Source: a virus
Virus genome (UHGV): UHGV-1366990
Length of the DNA stretch: 64,000 nucleotides
Direction: 5' to 3' (one strand)
In this document: in pieces, positions 244-57,132 of the stretch
Numbering within the stretch: the first letter of the stretch is position 1
Layout of the letters: the number at the start of each line of letters is the position of its first letter
Translations under genes and position numbers: made by a program
The notes under the pieces: generated by a model
The model's input: the letters and a program-made list of their open reading frames with translations, nothing else
Told to the model about the DNA's origin: nothing
The model's database searches: none

Positions 244-280
244 AAAGGGATAGAGCAATAATACCCTATCCCCTTTTATT
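244..280. terminator. GC hairpin (gggatag/ctatccc) followed by T-run; putative intrinsic terminator
   Basis: Inverted repeat 247-253/266-272 with ttttatt after; sits between two minus-strand genes. Confidence 0.35.
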
Positions 281-289
281 GAAGAACGA

Positions 290-2411: not shown

Positions 2412-2626
2412 TTGGATTCACCGACGAGCTGCGCCTTGGTCATCCCAAGGAGTTGATCTTTATGCTCAGGATTGGCACCGTTCTTTAACAACAAATCCCA
2501 ACGCTCTTCATGGTACTGTGGGTCCAGTGCTTCATCAAATGTGATGTGGTGGCGGAACATAATAGTTGCCACTGAATGGACACAGTGAGCGATTGCGCGC
2601 TTCATTGTTCGGGTATTCTTGATCAT
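2408..2626 (-). CDS. hypothetical protein (72 aa)
   Basis: ORF with GGGGGA RBS; stop overlaps start of downstream gene. Confidence 0.45.
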   Translation of the reverse strand: MIKNTRTMKRAIAHCVHSVATIMFRHHITFDEALDPQYHEERWDLLLKNGANPEHKDQLLGMTKAQLVGESK

Positions 2627-2723
2627 TTGGATTCCCCCATGACGATAACGGAAGCACCAAAAGCCGCTTCCATGTTGAGTAGGGACATATCTTCAATTCG
2701 TTGCATTGCCATGATATAGGACC

Positions 2724-2940: not shown

Positions 2941-2980
2941 GGGAACGGGCTAATAATAACCCATTCCCCTTTATTGAAGG
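2941..2980 (-). terminator. intrinsic terminator hairpin (ggggaa..attcccc) with T-runs on both sides
   Basis: Stem-loop followed by ttcttttt on minus strand, tttatt on plus. Confidence 0.4.
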
Positions 2981-8022: not shown

Positions 8023-8084
8023 TTCAATCACCTGTTTGTCAAAGGGTTAACAGGGGGAATTATATCCCCCTTTGGTTTATTGAA

Positions 8085-11778: not shown

Positions 11779-11991
11779 ATGAATGTGGTAAACAAGAGAT
11801 TGCTCGTCACCCAGGGCGGGGCGACGATAGTACGCGGAAGGATCTATGAACAAACACAGCTGGGAGATCATAAGACGCGCCTGACTGTTAAGGCTCCAGA
11901 TGGTGGTTGGCCGACAAAGGTGATTGTCCCAGACGGTCTCATAGAACGAGGATCGGCAACGTACAAGGGAGCAGAGTTCAAAATTTATTAA
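11779..11991 (+). CDS. hypothetical protein (70 aa)
   Basis: ORF only; weak RBS. Confidence 0.35.
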   Translation: MNVVNKRLLVTQGGATIVRGRIYEQTQLGDHKTRLTVKAPDGGWPTKVIVPDGLIERGSATYKGAEFKIY

Positions 11992-12009
11992 AATATTTAT
12001 TGAATAAAG

Positions 12010-12038
12010 TTTACTTCTTCAATAACTGGTGTATACTT
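12010..12038 (+). promoter_or_regulatory. sigma70-type early promoter (-35 TTTACT, 17 nt, -10 TATACT) with conserved leader
   Basis: One of three near-identical ~90-nt elements (also ~47132 and ~56394) ending in GAAGGAnCTATATCATG. Confidence 0.4.
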
Positions 12039-12081
12039 CTAATTGTAGTACGAACAACAATCTGAAGAGAAGGACTATATC

Positions 12082-12633
12082 ATGACAATGCCAAAAACTG
12101 CTGTCCGTATCGCTGTTGAGCCTCTGTTGTCGCAGGCCGAAGAAGCTGCCGAGCAGTACGCGAACAAAATCATCAAGAACGTGATGGACGATCTAGCCGC
12201 CAACGGCTGGGATCTTCAGAAGTGCGCCCCTTGGCCATCAACTGTTGGCGTCAGAATGGGACATCACGATTACCATCGGATGAAGGCAAAGCAGTCTTTG
12301 TATATGAGCCTGACCGCCGACAATAACCCGCCGAACCGCTCTTATCAAGTGGGTGCGCCTAACATCGTCAAGGCCGATCCAGAGCGCCAGCGTCTGTTCA
12401 TCAAGGAAGCCCGTTGCAACGCTGCCCATCAGTATGAATCTTTCATTTGCAAACTGGAAGACAAGATTGGTAGCCACAGCGCGGCTGTGCTGGACGGTTC
12501 TCACATTTGGGGGCATTCAATCCTGACCGTGACTACCCCGGAAGGGATCCAGCGCTGGAAGACCCAGACGATCATCAACGTCTCTAAGCTGGGCAAACTC
12601 TTTAACCAATATCCAACTCGCAAGGTGAAATGA
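12082..12633 (+). CDS. hypothetical protein (183 aa)
   Basis: ORF downstream of conserved promoter/leader; GAAGGA RBS. Confidence 0.55.
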   Translation: MTMPKTAVRIAVEPLLSQAEEAAEQYANKIIKNVMDDLAANGWDLQKCAPWPSTVGVRMGHHDYHRMKAKQSLYMSLTADNNPPNRSYQVGAPNIVKADPERQRLFIKEARCNAAHQYESFICKLEDKIGSHSAAVLDGSHIWGHSILTVTTPEGIQRWKTQTIINVSKLGKLFNQYPTRKVK

Positions 12634-12658
12634 AGAAAGGGGCGTTAAGCCCCTTTTC
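12634..12658. terminator. bidirectional intrinsic terminator (aaaggggcgttaagcccctttt)
   Basis: Perfect GC stem flanked by A-run and T-run between convergent genes. Confidence 0.5.
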
Positions 12659-15537: not shown

Positions 15538-15626
15538 TGGCGGAAGGTGAAGGATTCGAACCTTCGGGGGCTAAAAGCCCCACTCGATTAGCAGTCGAGT
15601 CCCTTAAACCTCTCGGGCAACCTTCC
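15538..15626 (-). tRNA. tRNA-Ser (anticodon GCU), type II with long variable arm, CCA encoded
   Basis: Hand-folded: acceptor GGAAGGT/ACCTTCC, anticodon stem CTCGA/TCGAG, loop CTGCTAA, variable stem GGGGC/GCCCC, T-arm GAAGG-TTCGAAT-CCTTC. Confidence 0.85.
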
Positions 15627-16148: not shown

Positions 16149-16224
16149 TGGCGACGATGGCAGGACTTGAACCTGCGACATACGGTTTAACAGACCGCCG
16201 TTCTACCGACTGAACTACATCGTC
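16149..16224 (-). tRNA. tRNA-Asn (anticodon GUU), CCA encoded
   Basis: Hand-folded: acceptor GACGATG/CATCGTC, D-arm GTTC-AGTCGGTA-GAAC, anticodon loop CTGTTAA, T-arm GCAGG-TTCAAGT-CCTGC. Confidence 0.85.
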
Positions 16225-16395
16225 TTGCAAATCACTATACCATATAAAGTTTATTGAACAAACATTTATTTTACAACAAACTGTATTGGCGGGGTCTGAG
16301 GCTTTTCACCTCACCTGCTGGGTTTGGCCGCCCAGCCGTTCTCTATGAGGATTCACTGTCCGGACAGCTATCCATTAAACTATCGCCCCTCAATA

Positions 16396-16472
16396 TGGTG
16401 ATCCTGATTGGGTTTGAACCAATGACCAATGAATTATGAGTTCACTGCTCTAACCGACTGAGCTACAGGACC
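16396..16472 (-). tRNA. tRNA-Met (anticodon CAU; initiator/elongator/Ile-lysidine not distinguished), CCA encoded
   Basis: Hand-folded: acceptor GGTCCTG/CAGGATC, D-arm GCTC-AGTCGGTTA-GAGC, anticodon loop CTCATAA, T-arm ATTGG-TTCAAAC-CCAAT. Confidence 0.85.
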
Positions 16473-18678: not shown

Positions 18679-18996
18679 TCCGGAGCCTCACTGGATTGAT
18701 TAAATGTCTCCGTTATTATATTGGGAGTATGTTTATTGAATATAAACACAGGAATGACCAATAAAATAATGACAGTGATTATTAATAGGTAAAAACTACT
18801 TTTCTACAACATCAAGAAACTGTATCCTAACGCAGTGCCCTTCGAGTTGTGAGTGTCAACGAACAACGAGAAGCAGCCTCCATGGCTGTGGAATGGTGCT
18901 GCCCGCATAGGGCGGTGTTACGAGCGAGGGCGTCAGCCCCCTCGCGAGTTATATTCGAATAAATTAAACGCGCGCGAGCGTTTTGATTCCCGTTGG

Positions 18997-44794: not shown

Positions 44795-44835
44795 CTTTCA
44801 AATTGAGCGAAACTCTACAGAGAAGGAATAAGATT

Positions 44836-46731
44836 ATGGCAACTCAAAGCTTCAGCGTTGCGCCGTCCGTACAGTGGACTGAGCGTGATGCCACGCTTCA
44901 GACGTCTCCATCCGTTGTTGTTCAGGGTGCGACTGTCGGCAAATTCCAATGGGGTGAAGCAGAACTCCCTGTGTTGGTCACTGGTGGCGAAACTGGTCTG
45001 GTGAAGAAATTCTTCAAGCCAAACGATGCAACTGCCACCGACTTCTTGGTGATTGCTGACTTCCTGTCTTACAGCTCTGTTGCATGGGTGACCCGTGTGG
45101 TCGGTCCGGCGGCACGCAACGCTGTAACCAAAGGTCAGACTGCAATCCTTATCCGCAACAAACTAGACTTCGAAACTGCGTCCCCATCTGCGTCTATTAC
45201 TTGGACAGGCCGCTATGCTGGCTCTCTGGGTAACGACATTGCTGTGAACATCTGTGATGCTGCGCTGTTCCCGACCTGGGAATTTCGTAACAACTTCGCA
45301 TATGCTCCGCAGGCTGGCGAGTACCACATCGCCATCGTTGACAAAGTAGGTCGTATTACCGACTCTTCTGGCGCTGTTAGTCAGGTTGACCGTATCTCTG
45401 TATCCGGTACTGCCACCGCTGCTGGTTCCATCTCTGTTGCTGGTGAAGCCGTGGCGTACACTGACGCTGACACCCCGGCGACTCTGGCGACAAAGATCGG
45501 AACCGCGCTGACGTCTCTGTCTGACGTGTATTCTTCTGTTGTCGTGAAGTCCAACACCGTCACCGTCACCCACAAAGCAATCGGTCCTCAGGCTGCGACT
45601 GCGATTGTTCCAGACGCGAATGGTCTGACTGCTACCGCTGCCGTCACCACTGTTGGTGCTTCCGGTACGATCATCGAGAAGTATGAACTGGTGCAGACCG
45701 CTCAGGGTTCTAAGAAATCTGATGGATCCAATGCGTACTTCAAAGACGTGATCAACGGCACCTCAAATTGGGTGTACACCTTCGCCACTACCCTGGCTGC
45801 TGGTGTCATTGAACTCGAAGGTGGTGTAGACGATTACACTGGGAACCGTGTTGCGGCTATCCAGGCACTGAACAACGCCGAAGCGTATGATGCCAAGCCA
45901 GTGTTCGGTTTCTGTGAAGAACTGATTGAGCAGCAGGCACTGATCGACCTGTCCACCGAGCGTAAAGACACAGTGTCCTTTGTGTCTCCTCTTCGCGATA
46001 CGGTCGTCGGAAACCGTGGCCGTGAGATGGATGATGTTGTGGCCTGGCGTGAAAGCCTTGTTCGCGACTCCTCCTACTTCTTCATGGATGACAACTGGGC
46101 GTATGTGTACGACAAGTACAACGACAAAATGCGTTGGATTCCGGCTTGTGGCGGCACCGCAGGTGTTTGGGCGCGAAGCATTGAAATCGCGGGTATCTAC
46201 AAGTCTCCAGCGTTCCATAACCGTGGTAAATACAACAACTATAATCGAATGGCGTGGTCTGCGTCTTCTGATGAGCGTGCTGTGCTGTATCGCAACCAGA
46301 TCAACAGCATCGTCACCTTCTCCAACGAAGGCATCGTGTTGTACGGCGACAAGACTGGCCTGACCCGCCCATCGGCGTTCGACCGCATCAACGTTCGTGG
46401 TCTGTTCATTATGGCAGAGCAGAATATCGCAGCCATCGCCAAATACTACCTTGGTGAGAACAACGATGCATTCACTCGTGGGTTGTTCAGCAACGCTGTC
46501 CGCCCATATATCCGCCAGTTGGCCAACATGGGCGCGATCTATGACGGGATGGTGAAGTGTGACGAGGACAACAACACCGCTGATGTTATCGCTGCGAACC
46601 AGATGGTCGCGGGTATCTGGCTGAAACCAGAATACTCCATCAACTGGGTGTATCTGGACTTTGCTGCGGTACGTCCGGACATGGAGTTCAGCGAGATCGA
46701 AACTGGCGGTGGCATCGTAGCCGCTTCTTAA
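44836..46731 (+). CDS. gp18: tail sheath protein (gp18-like)
   Basis: 631 aa; N-terminus MATQSFSVAPSVQWTERDATLQTSP typical of contractile sheath; GAAGGA RBS; follows terminase as in T4. Confidence 0.9.
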   Translation: MATQSFSVAPSVQWTERDATLQTSPSVVVQGATVGKFQWGEAELPVLVTGGETGLVKKFFKPNDATATDFLVIADFLSYSSVAWVTRVVGPAARNAVTKGQTAILIRNKLDFETASPSASITWTGRYAGSLGNDIAVNICDAALFPTWEFRNNFAYAPQAGEYHIAIVDKVGRITDSSGAVSQVDRISVSGTATAAGSISVAGEAVAYTDADTPATLATKIGTALTSLSDVYSSVVVKSNTVTVTHKAIGPQAATAIVPDANGLTATAAVTTVGASGTIIEKYELVQTAQGSKKSDGSNAYFKDVINGTSNWVYTFATTLAAGVIELEGGVDDYTGNRVAAIQALNNAEAYDAKPVFGFCEELIEQQALIDLSTERKDTVSFVSPLRDTVVGNRGREMDDVVAWRESLVRDSSYFFMDDNWAYVYDKYNDKMRWIPACGGTAGVWARSIEIAGIYKSPAFHNRGKYNNYNRMAWSASSDERAVLYRNQINSIVTFSNEGIVLYGDKTGLTRPSAFDRINVRGLFIMAEQNIAAIAKYYLGENNDAFTRGLFSNAVRPYIRQLANMGAIYDGMVKCDEDNNTADVIAANQMVAGIWLKPEYSINWVYLDFAAVRPDMEFSEIETGGGIVAAS

Positions 46732-46773: not shown

Positions 46774-47076
46774 ATGAAAAGTTTTTCTCAATTTTTAGCA
46801 GAAGCAGGTCTAAAAGGTGACCTTCAGAAAGTTAAAGACTCCGTGATTGAATGGTTGGAAGACCAAGATGTAAGGCTCAAAAAGGGTGATATCGAAAATG
46901 GAGTATTTGGAGATTTCTTCCGCATAACCATTGATGATTTTGAATATACATATAATGGCAAAGAGATTAAAGTATTCGACCTGAAGAAAGATAAACAGGT
47001 TGTTAGCAAGGCTGCTGGAACTCGAGAAGCCCCAGGTGAACTCGGTAAATTGTTTAAGAAATACAGCAAAGTGTAA
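46774..47076 (+). CDS. hypothetical protein (100 aa)
   Basis: GAGG RBS; followed by strong terminator. Confidence 0.5.
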   Translation: MKSFSQFLAEAGLKGDLQKVKDSVIEWLEDQDVRLKKGDIENGVFGDFFRITIDDFEYTYNGKEIKVFDLKKDKQVVSKAAGTREAPGELGKLFKKYSKV

Positions 47077-47080
47077 CAAG

Positions 47081-47110
47081 ACCCCGCTTCGGCGGGGTTT
47101 TAAATTTTTC
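47081..47110 (+). terminator. intrinsic terminator ACCCCGCTTCGGCGGGGTTTT
   Basis: Perfect GC hairpin with TTCG loop and T-run. Confidence 0.6.
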
Positions 47111-47131
47111 CAGATTATTTTATTGAATTAC

Positions 47132-47159
47132 TTTACTTCTTCAATAACTCACGTATAAT
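47132..47159 (+). promoter_or_regulatory. sigma70-type early promoter (-35 TTTACT, 16 nt, -10 TATAAT) with conserved leader
   Basis: Second copy of the conserved promoter/leader element. Confidence 0.4.
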
Positions 47160-47207
47160 TCTAAACATAAGCAGTACGACACCAACTTGAAACGAAGGAT
47201 CTATATC

Positions 47208-47564
47208 ATGACCAAGACCGAAATTAACGCTATCCTGAAAGAAATCGGCCTCTGTAACCTGAAACGCCGCATCAATCCTTACCAGCCTGCAAAGCCAGTA
47301 CGCGACAGCCAGGGAAAGATGATAAAAGGGATCTACTGTGCAGATGTTGGTCCAATGACGGTGACCAGTCCACACATTGACAGATTTAACGCTATTGTTG
47401 GGGAGTTTTGTGGTAAGGTTCTGGGTAAACTGTCTAATGATTTATGCTCCCCAGATACCAAAGTTGTAGCTTTCGGGAGCCACCTCGTCACCTTCCACCT
47501 CACCACCTTCCGTACCCACGGTGATTATCATGTGTATTATGCTCAGGTTAGCATTCGCAAATAG
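47208..47564 (+). CDS. hypothetical protein (118 aa)
   Basis: ATG inside conserved GAAGGATCTATATCATG context (track start 47187 is TTG). Confidence 0.5.
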   Translation: MTKTEINAILKEIGLCNLKRRINPYQPAKPVRDSQGKMIKGIYCADVGPMTVTSPHIDRFNAIVGEFCGKVLGKLSNDLCSPDTKVVAFGSHLVTFHLTTFRTHGDYHVYYAQVSIRK

Positions 47565-47570
47565 TAGTTT

Positions 47571-47598
47571 ACCCCGCTGAGGCGGGGTTTTAGTTTTC
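47571..47598 (+). terminator. intrinsic terminator ACCCCGCTGAGGCGGGGTTTT
   Basis: GC hairpin and T-run. Confidence 0.55.
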
Positions 47599-47602
47599 CA
47601 GT

Positions 47603-47878
47603 TCATACCGGATAAGACCACACCCCCCCCCAGATACACCCCAACCCGGTTTCTATCGCCAGTATATCCTCTGTTTTACCTTCTACATTGTATCCAAGTT
47701 TAAGGAATTTCTCTTTCCTGAGTTTACTATCAACCCAAGATCGGCATTCAGTTTCGGTCGTCGGGTTGTTATCCAACAAACCCGGATTGCGTTTCATCGT
47801 CCCCAGCATGAATGATTTACATTCGTCACTACAATACAACGCAGCCTTCCTGGTTGGGTGAACGGTTTGTGACAGCAT
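47603..47878 (-). pseudogene. internally deleted remnant of a homing-endonuclease-like gene (inverted paralog of 53901..55373)
   Basis: N-term RKAALYCSDECKSF and C-term GYNVEGKTEDILAIETGLGCIWG match both ends of the 490-aa protein; no RBS; contains G9 tract. Confidence 0.45.
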
Positions 47879-47952
47879 GAACAATTTTTATCGGGGAATG
47901 GCATAATAAATATCCTCACTTTGGAGTATTTTAACCCCCATTTATTTCAAAA

Positions 47953-47985: not shown

Positions 47986-48519
47986 ATGGCTACAGTTAAT
48001 GAATTCAGAGCAGCTATGTCACGCGGGGGCGGCGTTCAGCGCCAACACCGTTGGCGTGTGACTGTTAACTTCCCTTCCTTCGTGGCTGGAAGCGATACTA
48101 TCCGTGATGTTTCGCTGTTGGCGGTGACCACAAATACCCCAACAGGCCAGCTCGGGGAAATACTCGTCCCATGGGGTGGTCGTGAACTTCCATTCCCAGG
48201 CGACCGTCGTTTCGAGGCTCTGCCTGTGACGTTCATCAACGTCGTGGACAACGCTCCGTACAACGCATTCGAAGTCTGGCAGCAGTATATCAACGGCAGC
48301 AACAACAACCGTGCGTCTGCTAACCCAGATGATTATTTCCGTGATGTAATCATGGAACTGCTGGATGCTAACGACAACGTCACCAAGACCTGGACCCTTC
48401 AGGGCACCTGGCCTCAGAACCTCGGTCAGCTGGAACTGGACATGTCTGCAATGGACTCTTATACTCAGTTCACTGTTGACCTGCGTTACTTCCAGGCCAT
48501 TTCAGACAAGTCTCTCTAA
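47986..48519 (+). CDS. gp19: tail tube protein (gp19-like)
   Basis: 177 aa; AGAGGAGAA RBS; follows sheath as in T4. Confidence 0.8.
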   Translation: MATVNEFRAAMSRGGGVQRQHRWRVTVNFPSFVAGSDTIRDVSLLAVTTNTPTGQLGEILVPWGGRELPFPGDRRFEALPVTFINVVDNAPYNAFEVWQQYINGSNNNRASANPDDYFRDVIMELLDANDNVTKTWTLQGTWPQNLGQLELDMSAMDSYTQFTVDLRYFQAISDKSL

Positions 48520-55373: not shown

Positions 55374-55436
55374 AAGAACATTTCAATAACGGGGCGAGAG
55401 GTATTATTGCCCCGTCTACTATCCGAGGGTTGTACC

Positions 55437-55661: not shown

Positions 55662-55678
55662 AAGGAAGAATCTATATC

Positions 55679-56122
55679 ATGTGTGATAAGAATTTCATTT
55701 TCATTAGTCCCGCCAAGAAACAGTTCTTCCATAGCTCCGTTGGGGACAAGGTGGAAGGTTTCCGTAAACTCAAAGATTATCGCCTGGCATGCGGTGATGT
55801 TGATTTTCAGAGCTTCGACAATGATCGCCAGGATTTGAACGATGAGGGTTGGACAGAAGTTCCATCCCCACAGTTTATCGACGTCAAGCTGTACTACATG
55901 AAGGACAGTGGGAAGTATTATTCAGAGGGTGTGATCAAAATCAACCGTGGGGAGGCCGAGGCCGAACCTGCTAAGTCCTGGATGGAGACTATGGATAAAA
56001 TCCGCTATCTGCTTGACTCAGGCAATTTGCCTGGTTTGGTTAAAGGTGCCCGGTATGAGGTCTTCGTGACCGGAGAAGGGCATCCAGGTGGGTATCCGGC
56101 GGTATTCCGCGTTAACAACTGA
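55679..56122 (+). CDS. hypothetical protein (147 aa)
   Basis: ATG in conserved GAAGGAAGAATCTATATCATG context. Confidence 0.5.
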   Translation: MCDKNFIFISPAKKQFFHSSVGDKVEGFRKLKDYRLACGDVDFQSFDNDRQDLNDEGWTEVPSPQFIDVKLYYMKDSGKYYSEGVIKINRGEAEAEPAKSWMETMDKIRYLLDSGNLPGLVKGARYEVFVTGEGHPGGYPAVFRVNN

Positions 56123-56130
56123 GGTCAAAC

Positions 56131-56367
56131 ATGATTATCAAAAAGATCGGCGCAAGTCCTCTCACTGGTACTATATTCCAGGGCAGGTTGAACACCAAAA
56201 CCAGCATGTGGGTTGGTGAGAAGACCGACGTGACAGATGACTGCGTGGCAGCTGTAGCTGAACACTTGCGTCACATCAAGAAAGACTATTGCTTCCCAAC
56301 AACGGATGGTAAGTTTCTGGTGCTGAGCGCCGAGGTTCACGACACCCTTCCTGATCGCTTCAAATAA
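56131..56367 (+). CDS. hypothetical protein (78 aa)
   Basis: GAGG RBS. Confidence 0.45.
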   Translation: MIIKKIGASPLTGTIFQGRLNTKTSMWVGEKTDVTDDCVAAVAEHLRHIKKDYCFPTTDGKFLVLSAEVHDTLPDRFK

Positions 56368-56393
56368 ATTTTAAATTTATTCAATAAACGGGG

Positions 56394-56421
56394 TTTACTT
56401 CTTCAATAAACCCCGTATACT
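56394..56421 (+). promoter_or_regulatory. sigma70-type early promoter (-35 TTTACT, 16 nt, -10 TATACT) with conserved leader
   Basis: Third copy of the conserved promoter/leader; -35 embedded in a GC hairpin. Confidence 0.4.
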
Positions 56422-56470
56422 TCATTCCATAAGCAGCACAACACTGACTCTGAAATGAAGGAACTATATC

Positions 56471-56788
56471 ATGAACACTCCAAAAATCTCTATCTGGGCT
56501 TTCGACGAATTCACCGCATTTGACGCTCTGATTGCTACTCTGGGTTGTGCTCCTCAGGAAGCGGAAGACGATTACTCCCGCACTAACAAAGTCAAGATGG
56601 TGAACACCACTCACGATTTCAAACACGACCTGAACTCCTTCTTGGACGTTTTGGCTACCACCCTGCCAGAAGCTGACATGGCAACTGTGCGCGGCTCTAT
56701 CTTTAAGAAGAACGGCGAAATGCGCAAGTTAGCGGGTAAAGAAGTGAAATTCGCCGCCGACGGTTTCTTCATCACCATTGAATTCTGA
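56471..56788 (+). CDS. hypothetical protein (105 aa)
   Basis: ATG in GAAGGAACTATATCATG context. Confidence 0.5.
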   Translation: MNTPKISIWAFDEFTAFDALIATLGCAPQEAEDDYSRTNKVKMVNTTHDFKHDLNSFLDVLATTLPEADMATVRGSIFKKNGEMRKLAGKEVKFAADGFFITIEF

Positions 56789-56802
56789 TTGAGGTGCACA
56801 CC

Positions 56803-57132
56803 ATGACTTTTAAAGGCTTTGTAGCATTCGACGCAACCAAAACCAACGTGCTGAGCAATCCGCAGCTGGAAACCATCTCTGAAATGCGCCAGTGGGTGAT
56901 GGGGATCACTGGCCATCAAACCCGCAAAGATCTTGAAGCGGAGTTCTATATCGAACCTGCTGAAGTCTTCTTCAATCGCCCTGAAGATGAACCGTTCATC
57001 CGTCAAGACTTGGATGACAATGATATCACTCTCGCGATCTTCTCTGAAGCAAAAGCGGCTATGATCGTGGACGGCCTGTGTGATGAGTCCTTCACATACG
57101 ATGAATACTGCGATCAGTGTCAGGATCTGTGA
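56803..57132 (+). CDS. hypothetical acidic protein (109 aa)
   Basis: ATG with GAGG RBS (track start is GTG). Confidence 0.5.
   Translation: MTFKGFVAFDATKTNVLSNPQLETISEMRQWVMGITGHQTRKDLEAEFYIEPAEVFFNRPEDEPFIRQDLDDNDITLAIFSEAKAAMIVDGLCDESFTYDEYCDQCQDL

Follow-up and report, generated by a model that had tools for sequence, protein, structure and literature searches.

Repeated promoter-leader cassettes as probable expression slots for exchangeable small genes in Ackermannviridae phages

The DNA analysed here, a 64-kb stretch referred to in its full length as the window, derives from an Ackermannviridae (ViI/SKML-39-like) phage, with Escherichia phage LHE287 as its closest deposited relative (97.9%) and SKML-39 at 91%. 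Three ~100-nt blocks in this window probably serve as strong sigma70-type and presumably early promoter/leader expression slots, whose conserved edges would act as recombination arms. In this model, a host sigma70-type promoter (UP-like tract, -35 TTTACT, 16-nt spacer and -10 TATAMT) would most likely be active immediately after infection, the ~40-nt CA-rich leader would be selected for openness and may enhance translation, and the fixed initiation region (AAGGA, 7-8 nt, ATG) would ensure high expression of a short accessory ORF until an intrinsic terminator. Bordered by the conserved block on its left and a GC-rich terminator on its right, the ORF would have short homology arms on both sides, which the phage's own T4-type recombination system (UvsX, UvsY and gp46/47, as assigned by transfer of the LHE287 annotation) could use to swap, delete or insert ORFs. 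Since block and terminator supply such short homology, swaps would take place at fixed boundaries. The ~100-nt block itself is near-invariant among genera that differ in the ORF behind it, and the cassette-2 unit would be one example, inserted at the junction of tail sheath and tail tube genes. The cassettes are read as early promoters because no phage factor would in principle be needed and because of their likeness to the extended-consensus early promoters of T4 (PMC2988021).

Architecture of the three cassettes

The initial annotation had described three near-identical promoter-leader blocks, and all the features on which this description rests were found, with 77-81 identical positions over ~100-106 nt in pairwise comparisons of the copies as compared to a mean of 60 and a maximum of 70 in shuffles. 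Multiple alignment and motif scanning extended this identity beyond the -35 and -10 hexamers. Both the -35 hexamer TTTACT and the TTCAATAA octamer are part of a 16-mer, TTTACTTCTTCAATAA, of which the window contains exactly three copies, one per ~100-nt block and all on the plus strand, and a scan of the window with up to 3 mismatches revealed no site beyond the three cassettes. From 5' to 3', each block is composed of an AT-rich box, the -35 TTTACT, a 16-nt spacer containing TTCAATAA, the -10 TATAMT, a leader, AAGGA and ATG. The features of these blocks, the genes behind them and the hairpin closing the first unit are:

11985..12084, plus strand, cassette 1 (type A): palindrome TTTATTGAATAAA at 11996-12008, -35 TTTACT at 12010-12015, TTCAATAA at 12018-12025, -10 TATACT at 12032-12037, predicted leader from ~12044, SD AAGGA at 12070-12074, ATG at 12082
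12082..12633, plus strand, gene now fused to cassette 1 (183 aa, phrog_4687)
12635..12657, no strand assigned, bidirectional terminator-like hairpin closing the cassette-1 unit
47107..47210, plus strand, cassette 2 (type-C core and leader): TTATTGAA at 47120-47127, -35 at 47132-47137, TTCAATAA at 47140-47147, -10 TATAAT at 47154-47159, SD AAGGA at 47195-47199, ATG at 47208
47208..47564, plus strand, cassette-2 gene (118 aa, phrog_13016), placed between the genes for tail sheath (44803-46731) and tail tube (47986-48519)
56368..56473, plus strand, cassette 3 (type B): box TTTATTCAATAAA at 56376-56388, -35 at 56394-56399, TTCAATAA at 56402-56409, -10 TATACT at 56416-56421, SD AAGGA at 56458-56462, ATG at 56471
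56388-56416, plus strand, inverted repeat ACGGGGTTTA/TAAACCCCGT of cassette 3, enclosing the -35 and TTCAATAA
56471..57132, plus strand, pair of small ORFs following cassette 3, of 105 and 112 aa, matching the N- and C-terminal parts, respectively, of phrog_6516

In all three cassettes, TTTACTTCTTCAATAA is followed after six more bases by TATA(C/A)T, which fixes at 16 nt a spacer originally given as 16-17 nt, and an independent consensus scanner identified all three as sigma70-like promoters with 9-10/12 matches and the same 16-nt spacing. DNA of ViI-like phages carries modified thymidines, which could alter recognition by sigma70. Upstream of TTTACTTCTTCAATAA lie AT-rich tracts (11985-12006 with 20/22 A/T, 47103-47131 and 56360-56387) carrying a TTTATT(G/C)AATAAA-like box; the palindromic box proposed as a shared element holds for cassettes 1 and 3, and that of cassette 2 is degenerate (TTTATTGAATTAC). 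Stem-loop analysis revealed an inverted repeat around the -35 in each copy. Cassette 3 has a GC stem of 10 bp that encloses the -35 together with the spacer (z = -5.7), cassette 2 a terminator hairpin together with an A/T stem (z = -3.5) and cassette 1 only a weak 8-bp A/T stem (z = -1.3); in type-C cassettes of relatives a GGGGC/GCCCC hairpin abuts the -35.

The leader is ~40 nt long and CA-rich, and is followed by AAGGA, a 7-8-nt spacer ending in CTATATC and the ATG at the 3' end of the block. A leader sequence common to the three copies, as originally suggested, is found in part only (GTACGAACAACA / GTACGACACCAAC / GCACAACACTGAC). The leaders are less structured than shuffled controls, with folding worse than 177-200 of 200 shuffles. 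The unusual conservation of this transcribed segment is the sole point in favour of regarding the cassettes as replication-origin promoters (like T4 oriF/oriG, with transcript-primed DNA synthesis) or the leaders as a structured RNA regulator. Such a role is very improbable, given the open leaders, the absence of any Rfam family match in a window where just 3 tRNAs are found, a GC skew that tracks gene orientation with nothing distinctive at the cassettes, and the arrangement of the leaders, each of which leads directly into an SD and an ORF, in 3-4 copies per genome that are each closed by a terminator. The three tRNA genes themselves are on the minus strand (15541-15626, 16152-16224 and 16399-16472), in the region between the replication and baseplate modules.

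With each unit closed by a terminator, every copy fits an expression module, as had been proposed, made up of a predicted sigma70-like promoter, AT-rich tract, open leader, SD, ATG and terminator. Names transferred from the LHE287 annotation put cassette 1 next to the DNA polymerase gene, cassette 2 at the junction of the genes for tail sheath (gp18) and tail tube (gp19), and cassette 3 within a small-ORF block downstream of the major capsid gene. The downstream proteins are mutually unrelated ORFans belonging to different PHROGs without assigned function, in agreement with the earlier statement that they are not paralogs. The two ORFs behind cassette 3 (56471-56788 for the N-terminal and 56794-57132 for the C-terminal part of phrog_6516) correspond in Mooltan to a single 154-aa gene, and the window's version looks split or rearranged.

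Conservation of the cassettes and exchange of the genes behind them

A 100-nt cassette query matched 281 Ackermannviridae records at 1-4 places each, and a profile built from the three window copies detected 4 full copies in LHE287 and 3 in the Kuttervirus Mooltan. An exact scan of IMG/VR for the core and -10 yielded 48 loci, 41 of which are from ~150-160-kb contigs of Ackermannviridae; a scan with the 16-mer only had given mostly chance matches in unrelated AT-rich contigs and was replaced by a 22-base pattern. In two IMG/VR contigs of 19 kb and 128 kb, TTTACTTCTTCAATAA-N6-TATAAT is present upstream of a gene (L157, 6139-6166; L160, 2219-2246); no close relative of either contig was found among deposited phages, and these sites represent either chance similarity or the occurrence of this promoter core in a further group of phages.

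Upstream context and leader define three types, namely A (window cassette 1), B (window cassette 3) and C (a fourth locus outside the window), with window cassette 2 having the type-C core and leader and a different upstream flank. For cassettes 1 and 3, synteny holds in all genera that were compared (Kuttervirus and Klebsiella/Serratia phages, and for cassette 3 also Limestonevirus). When the window is compared with Mooltan, which belongs to another genus, the genome median identity is 77% (aligned 100-nt windows), whereas cassette 1 is 98.9% and cassette 3 98.1% identical, both above the 99th percentile. With a Dickeya Limestonevirus phage, the type-B cassette (cassette 3) is 100% identical over 117 nt, as compared to ~76% for the upstream gene. 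An apparent recent transfer of cassette 3, suggested by 100% identity to Dickeya phages as against only 72% for cassette 1, was dropped, as the 72% match turned out to represent the type-B paralogue. Among genera, orthologous cassettes are frozen, with up to 100% identity, whereas paralogous types within one genome differ at ~20% of positions. In the Dickeya comparison the identity tract sets in no more than ~10 nt from the stop codon of the upstream gene and runs as far as the ATG, and therefore nucleotide-level functional constraint is favoured over conversion tracts; in an alignment of 36 unique instances, similarity is likewise lost exactly at the ATG. Invariance of the whole leader exceeds what is obviously needed for a promoter and a homology arm.

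Both synteny and the extent of this identity tract, which is as expected under functional constraint, are consistent with the cassettes being plain conserved strong promoters without any causal role in shuffling, behind which dispensable genes accumulate and turn over. We regard this explanation as possible rather than likely in view of what happens to the genes behind the cassettes. Among different phages, ~4 unrelated first-gene families are found behind each cassette type. The two differences of the window from LHE287 at cassettes 1 and 3 both begin at the 3' edge of the cassette. LHE287 and Mooltan contain a 185-aa gene directly behind cassette 1, which is deleted in the window. This deletion ran between two CTGAAG..AAGGA start contexts, with a microhomology of only 6-8 nt located in the ribosome-binding region; its use of the RBS and not of the promoter is a further point for plain promoters. 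LHE287 lacks both ORFs that follow cassette 3 in the window, and the breakpoint falls immediately after GAAGGAACTAT. At cassettes 1 and 3 the ORF behind moves and the cassette itself stays fixed. Breakpoints at cassette edges alone are no proof that the cassette causes recombination, because variable segments always abut conserved ones.

The type-C (sister) locus is more difficult to reconcile with plain promoters. At this locus four different genes are found, whose left bound is the ATG and whose right bound falls, in all four independent replacements, within one and the same terminator hairpin (GGGGC-loop|GCCCCTTTC). A sharp jump in flank identity marks the junction, for instance with 85% to its left as compared to 99.7% to its right, and with the reverse in another pair. 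These jumps and boundaries are the signature of putative crossovers at these very points. Leaders are also mosaic between types, as in a type-B frame with a type-C 'cagtacgacaccaact' segment, and the fourth cassette of LHE287 combines C, B and C pieces. The initial description of the cassette as recombinogenic thus gains support from comparison, with indels and replacements starting at the cassette 3' edge and ending, at the type-C locus, inside the terminator, although the mechanism outlined above is only a probable one. In terms of genome evolution, the cassettes mark the exact slots where Ackermannviridae exchange small accessory genes, which likely have host-takeover or anti-defence functions, a guess on our part.

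Cassette 2 as a probable transposed unit and comparison with known systems

Mobility of the cassette itself, which had also been proposed, applies to cassette 2 with its gene and not to the fixed and syntenic cassettes 1 and 3. The cassette-2 unit (47078-47588) is an ordered set of terminator, promoter, gene and terminator placed between the tail sheath and tail tube genes, and its borders and neighbour are:

47078..47101, plus strand, upstream terminator hairpin, left copy of a near-identical flanking pair
47571..47588, plus strand, downstream terminator hairpin, right copy of this pair
47603..47884, minus strand, internally deleted remnant of an F-LimVII-like homing endonuclease (tblastn vs maane_19: aa 1-88 and 550-581, E = 1e-30)

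The distribution of this unit is patchy. The whole sheath-tube arrangement is common to LHE287 only, the unit also occurs in Salmonella phage maane, and most phages match just the ~80-nt cassette at their type-C locus. In maane, the unit occupies the same sheath-tube site, with a perfect 27-bp direct repeat of the terminator on both sides, and adjoins an intact F-LimVII-like homing endonuclease gene, while in Mooltan the place is taken by a GIY-YIG endonuclease; the sheath-tube junction is a hot spot for insertions. A 100-aa ORF located between sheath gene and unit (46774-47076, plus strand) is without PHROG or Pfam match; it has a nucleotide-level match in Klebsiella phage Magnus and not in most relatives and constitutes another mosaic piece. 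Cassette 2 is 87-91% identical over 109 nt to the type-C cassettes of L095 and L152, which lie at a different locus, and its gene product shares 30% aa identity (E = 1e-11) with that of the gene behind them. Since a homologue of the gene is found behind the same cassette type at another locus, promoter and gene appear to have travelled together at least once. A gene family behind one cassette type at two loci, like the perfect terminator repeat around the maane unit, speaks against plain promoters. Plausible routes for this unit are integration at the terminator, co-conversion with the homing endonuclease, or both.

The closest known system is that of the PeSL cassettes of T4-like phages (Arbiol et al. 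2010, PMC2839356; Comeau et al. 2014, PMC4122927). PeSLs are likewise ~100-nt repeated intergenic blocks with an AT-rich tract, sigma70-like -35/-10 elements, a variably placed stem-loop, SD and start codon; they lie upstream of ORFans, a few of them inside virion modules, bound indels and replacements between related genomes and are composite terminator/promoters. However, PeSLs are numerous and concentrated in hyperplastic regions, with ~50 copies in phi1/RB49 as compared to 3-4 full copies per Ackermannviridae genome, all ahead of ORFs without assigned function. The cassettes further differ in forming three discrete types at syntenic loci, in having the whole leader 98-100% conserved across genera and in using an ordinary terminator, not a second cassette, as the right exchange point. 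For PeSLs, promoter and terminator activity and mini-circles have been shown experimentally, whereas promoters and terminators of the cassettes are predicted from sequence. Because the window is Ackermannviridae-like and not T4-like (Tevenvirinae sensu Comeau 2014), the cassettes are to be called PeSL-like, or moron-like, and lie outside the described PeSL set. If the exchange reading is true, PeSL-type modular shuffling is not restricted to T4-like phages.

Morons are promoter-gene-terminator units between conserved late genes of lambdoid phages, reportedly described by Juhala and Hendrix in 2000. Like a moron, the cassette-2 unit is autonomous, inserted between two adjacent structural genes and absent from most relatives. 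The definition of morons comes from temperate phages, in which the prophage typically expresses them, whereas the cassette-2 unit resides in a virulent, T4-related phage and its promoter belongs to a repeated family conserved across Ackermannviridae. In keeping with the gene content of a T4-related virulent phage, neither an integrase nor a repressor was found in the annotation of LHE287 or Mooltan. No description of these cassettes in Ackermannviridae, or of PeSLs outside T4-like phages, was found in the searchable literature (open, non-subscription papers), which likewise yielded nothing relevant on the octamer, on the promoter sequence or on promoters and transcriptomes of Ackermannviridae. 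The 2012 'Viunalikevirus' proposal is said to mention conserved regulatory sequences. Ackermannviridae phages are used in biocontrol and therapy, for which the ~100-nt blocks would provide natural, portable expression slots for engineering.

The cassettes also resemble T4 early promoters (Hinton 2010, PMC2988021) in their host sigma70-type elements, AT-rich UP region and conservation past the hexamers ('uber' promoters), a likeness that for the cassettes is one of sequence only. They differ from T4 early promoters by lacking a TGn extended -10, by having TTTACT as -35 and TTCAATAA in the spacer, and by a conservation that runs through the leader to the ATG.

The TTCAATAA octamer, a second promoter-like family and the start context

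The octamer TTCAATAA occurs 14 times in the window against 1.9 expected, and 13 of these 14 occurrences are in non-coding stretches beside gene starts or ends. Outside the cassettes it defines a second, larger promoter-like family of the form TTCAATAA-N12 (11-13)-TAT(N)AT, with a GC hairpin carrying the -10 in its loop and often a T-tract after it, in which no usable -35 was found. LHE287 contains ~13 gene-proximal copies, and orthologous sites are conserved in Mooltan. This family is a candidate phage-specific, perhaps middle, promoter class of composite terminator/promoters, and resembles the PeSL subclass whose stem-loop overlaps the -10. Its sites in the window are:

276-283, minus strand, second-family site
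2971-2978, minus strand, second-family site
8077-8084, minus strand, second-family site
18733-18740, minus strand, second-family site
55382-55389, plus strand, second-family site
16251, minus strand, weaker site
~57140, plus strand, weaker site

The weaker site at 16251 is directly upstream of a tRNA.

This distribution raises the question of whether the cassettes are regulated promoters. According to such an explanation, TTCAATAA would be the site of a phage transcription factor that activates the second family and shuts off or retunes the cassettes at the middle switch, and the conservation would reflect overlapping protein-binding sites rather than recombination. The excess of the octamer near gene starts and ends, the conservation of sites without a usable -35 in another genus, and a spacing of 12 bp upstream of the -10 that is the same as for the T4 MotA box (PMC2988021) all point in this direction. 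In the three cassettes, TTCAATAA sits 6 bp from the -10 in the presence of a sigma70-type -35, and the MotA-like 12-bp spacing is limited to the second family; alternative -10 elements 12 bp downstream of the cassette boxes were sought by sequence inspection and rejected, as they are not conserved between types. A second TTCAATAA copy is present just upstream of the cassette -35, inverted in type A and direct in B and C, and the distance between the starts of both boxes is 21-22 or 32 bp, or ~2 or 3 helical turns, a further point for regulation. However, this variation of orientation and spacing with type is atypical of one operator geometry, the upstream box in B and C could be part of the 'TTCAATAA + hairpin' unit that is common at gene ends, here that of the preceding gene, and the invariant leader is left unexplained. 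Furthermore, Ackermannviridae (ViI-like) phages have no known homologues of MotA, AsiA, Alt or Mod (PMC3184105), and no candidate factor was identified. On balance, regulation through TTCAATAA as the main explanation for the cassettes is unlikely.

A more specific proposal, which is quite doubtful, regards TTCAATAA as the recognition element of an undiscovered phage transcription factor system in Ackermannviridae, an analogue of MotA/AsiA without sequence homologues, that would activate ~13 promoters through a box at -30 and act on the 3-4 cassettes via boxes bracketing the -35. If true, every nucleotide of the ~117-nt blocks would be constrained by the overlap of UP element, operator, promoter, leader and translational operator, and a first handle on early and middle regulation in Ackermannviridae would be obtained. 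In the CBA120 paper, early promoters of ViI-like phages were not identifiable and no early or middle transcription regulators were known (PMC3184105). The cassettes and the TTCAATAA-N12-TATNAT family represent concrete candidates for the early and middle promoter classes of these phages.

The last element shared by the cassettes is the start context CTATATCATG, which had been noted at their start codons and is present at all three, with cassette 1 reading GAAGGA-CTATATCATG without the extra base of the others, having acquired its start context through the deletion described above. Five copies occur in the window, all at gene starts (plus strand 12075, 47201, 55672 and 56464; minus strand 2710). 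As previously stated, the gene at 55679 shares this context alone:

55665..55681, plus strand, start context alone GAAGAATCTATATCATG, with CTATATCATG at 55672, ahead of gene 55679-56122 (phrog_4181) and downstream of the second-family promoter at 55382

No cassette promoter is present ahead of gene 55679-56122. A genome-wide start-context habit was considered and rejected, CTATATCATG being the top pre-ATG heptamer and yet preceding only 4-5 of ~200 genes. Speculatively, the CTATATC-ATG context (GGAACUAUAUCAUG start region) could act as an operator of translation, bound for instance by the RegA homologue of the phage. The fifth CTATATCATG begins a 29-aa ORF (2624-2712, minus strand) that overlaps the start of gene 2408-2626; the LHE287 homologue of this ORF has the same initial residues but comprises 72 aa, and the window may contain a frameshift or a different gene structure at this position.
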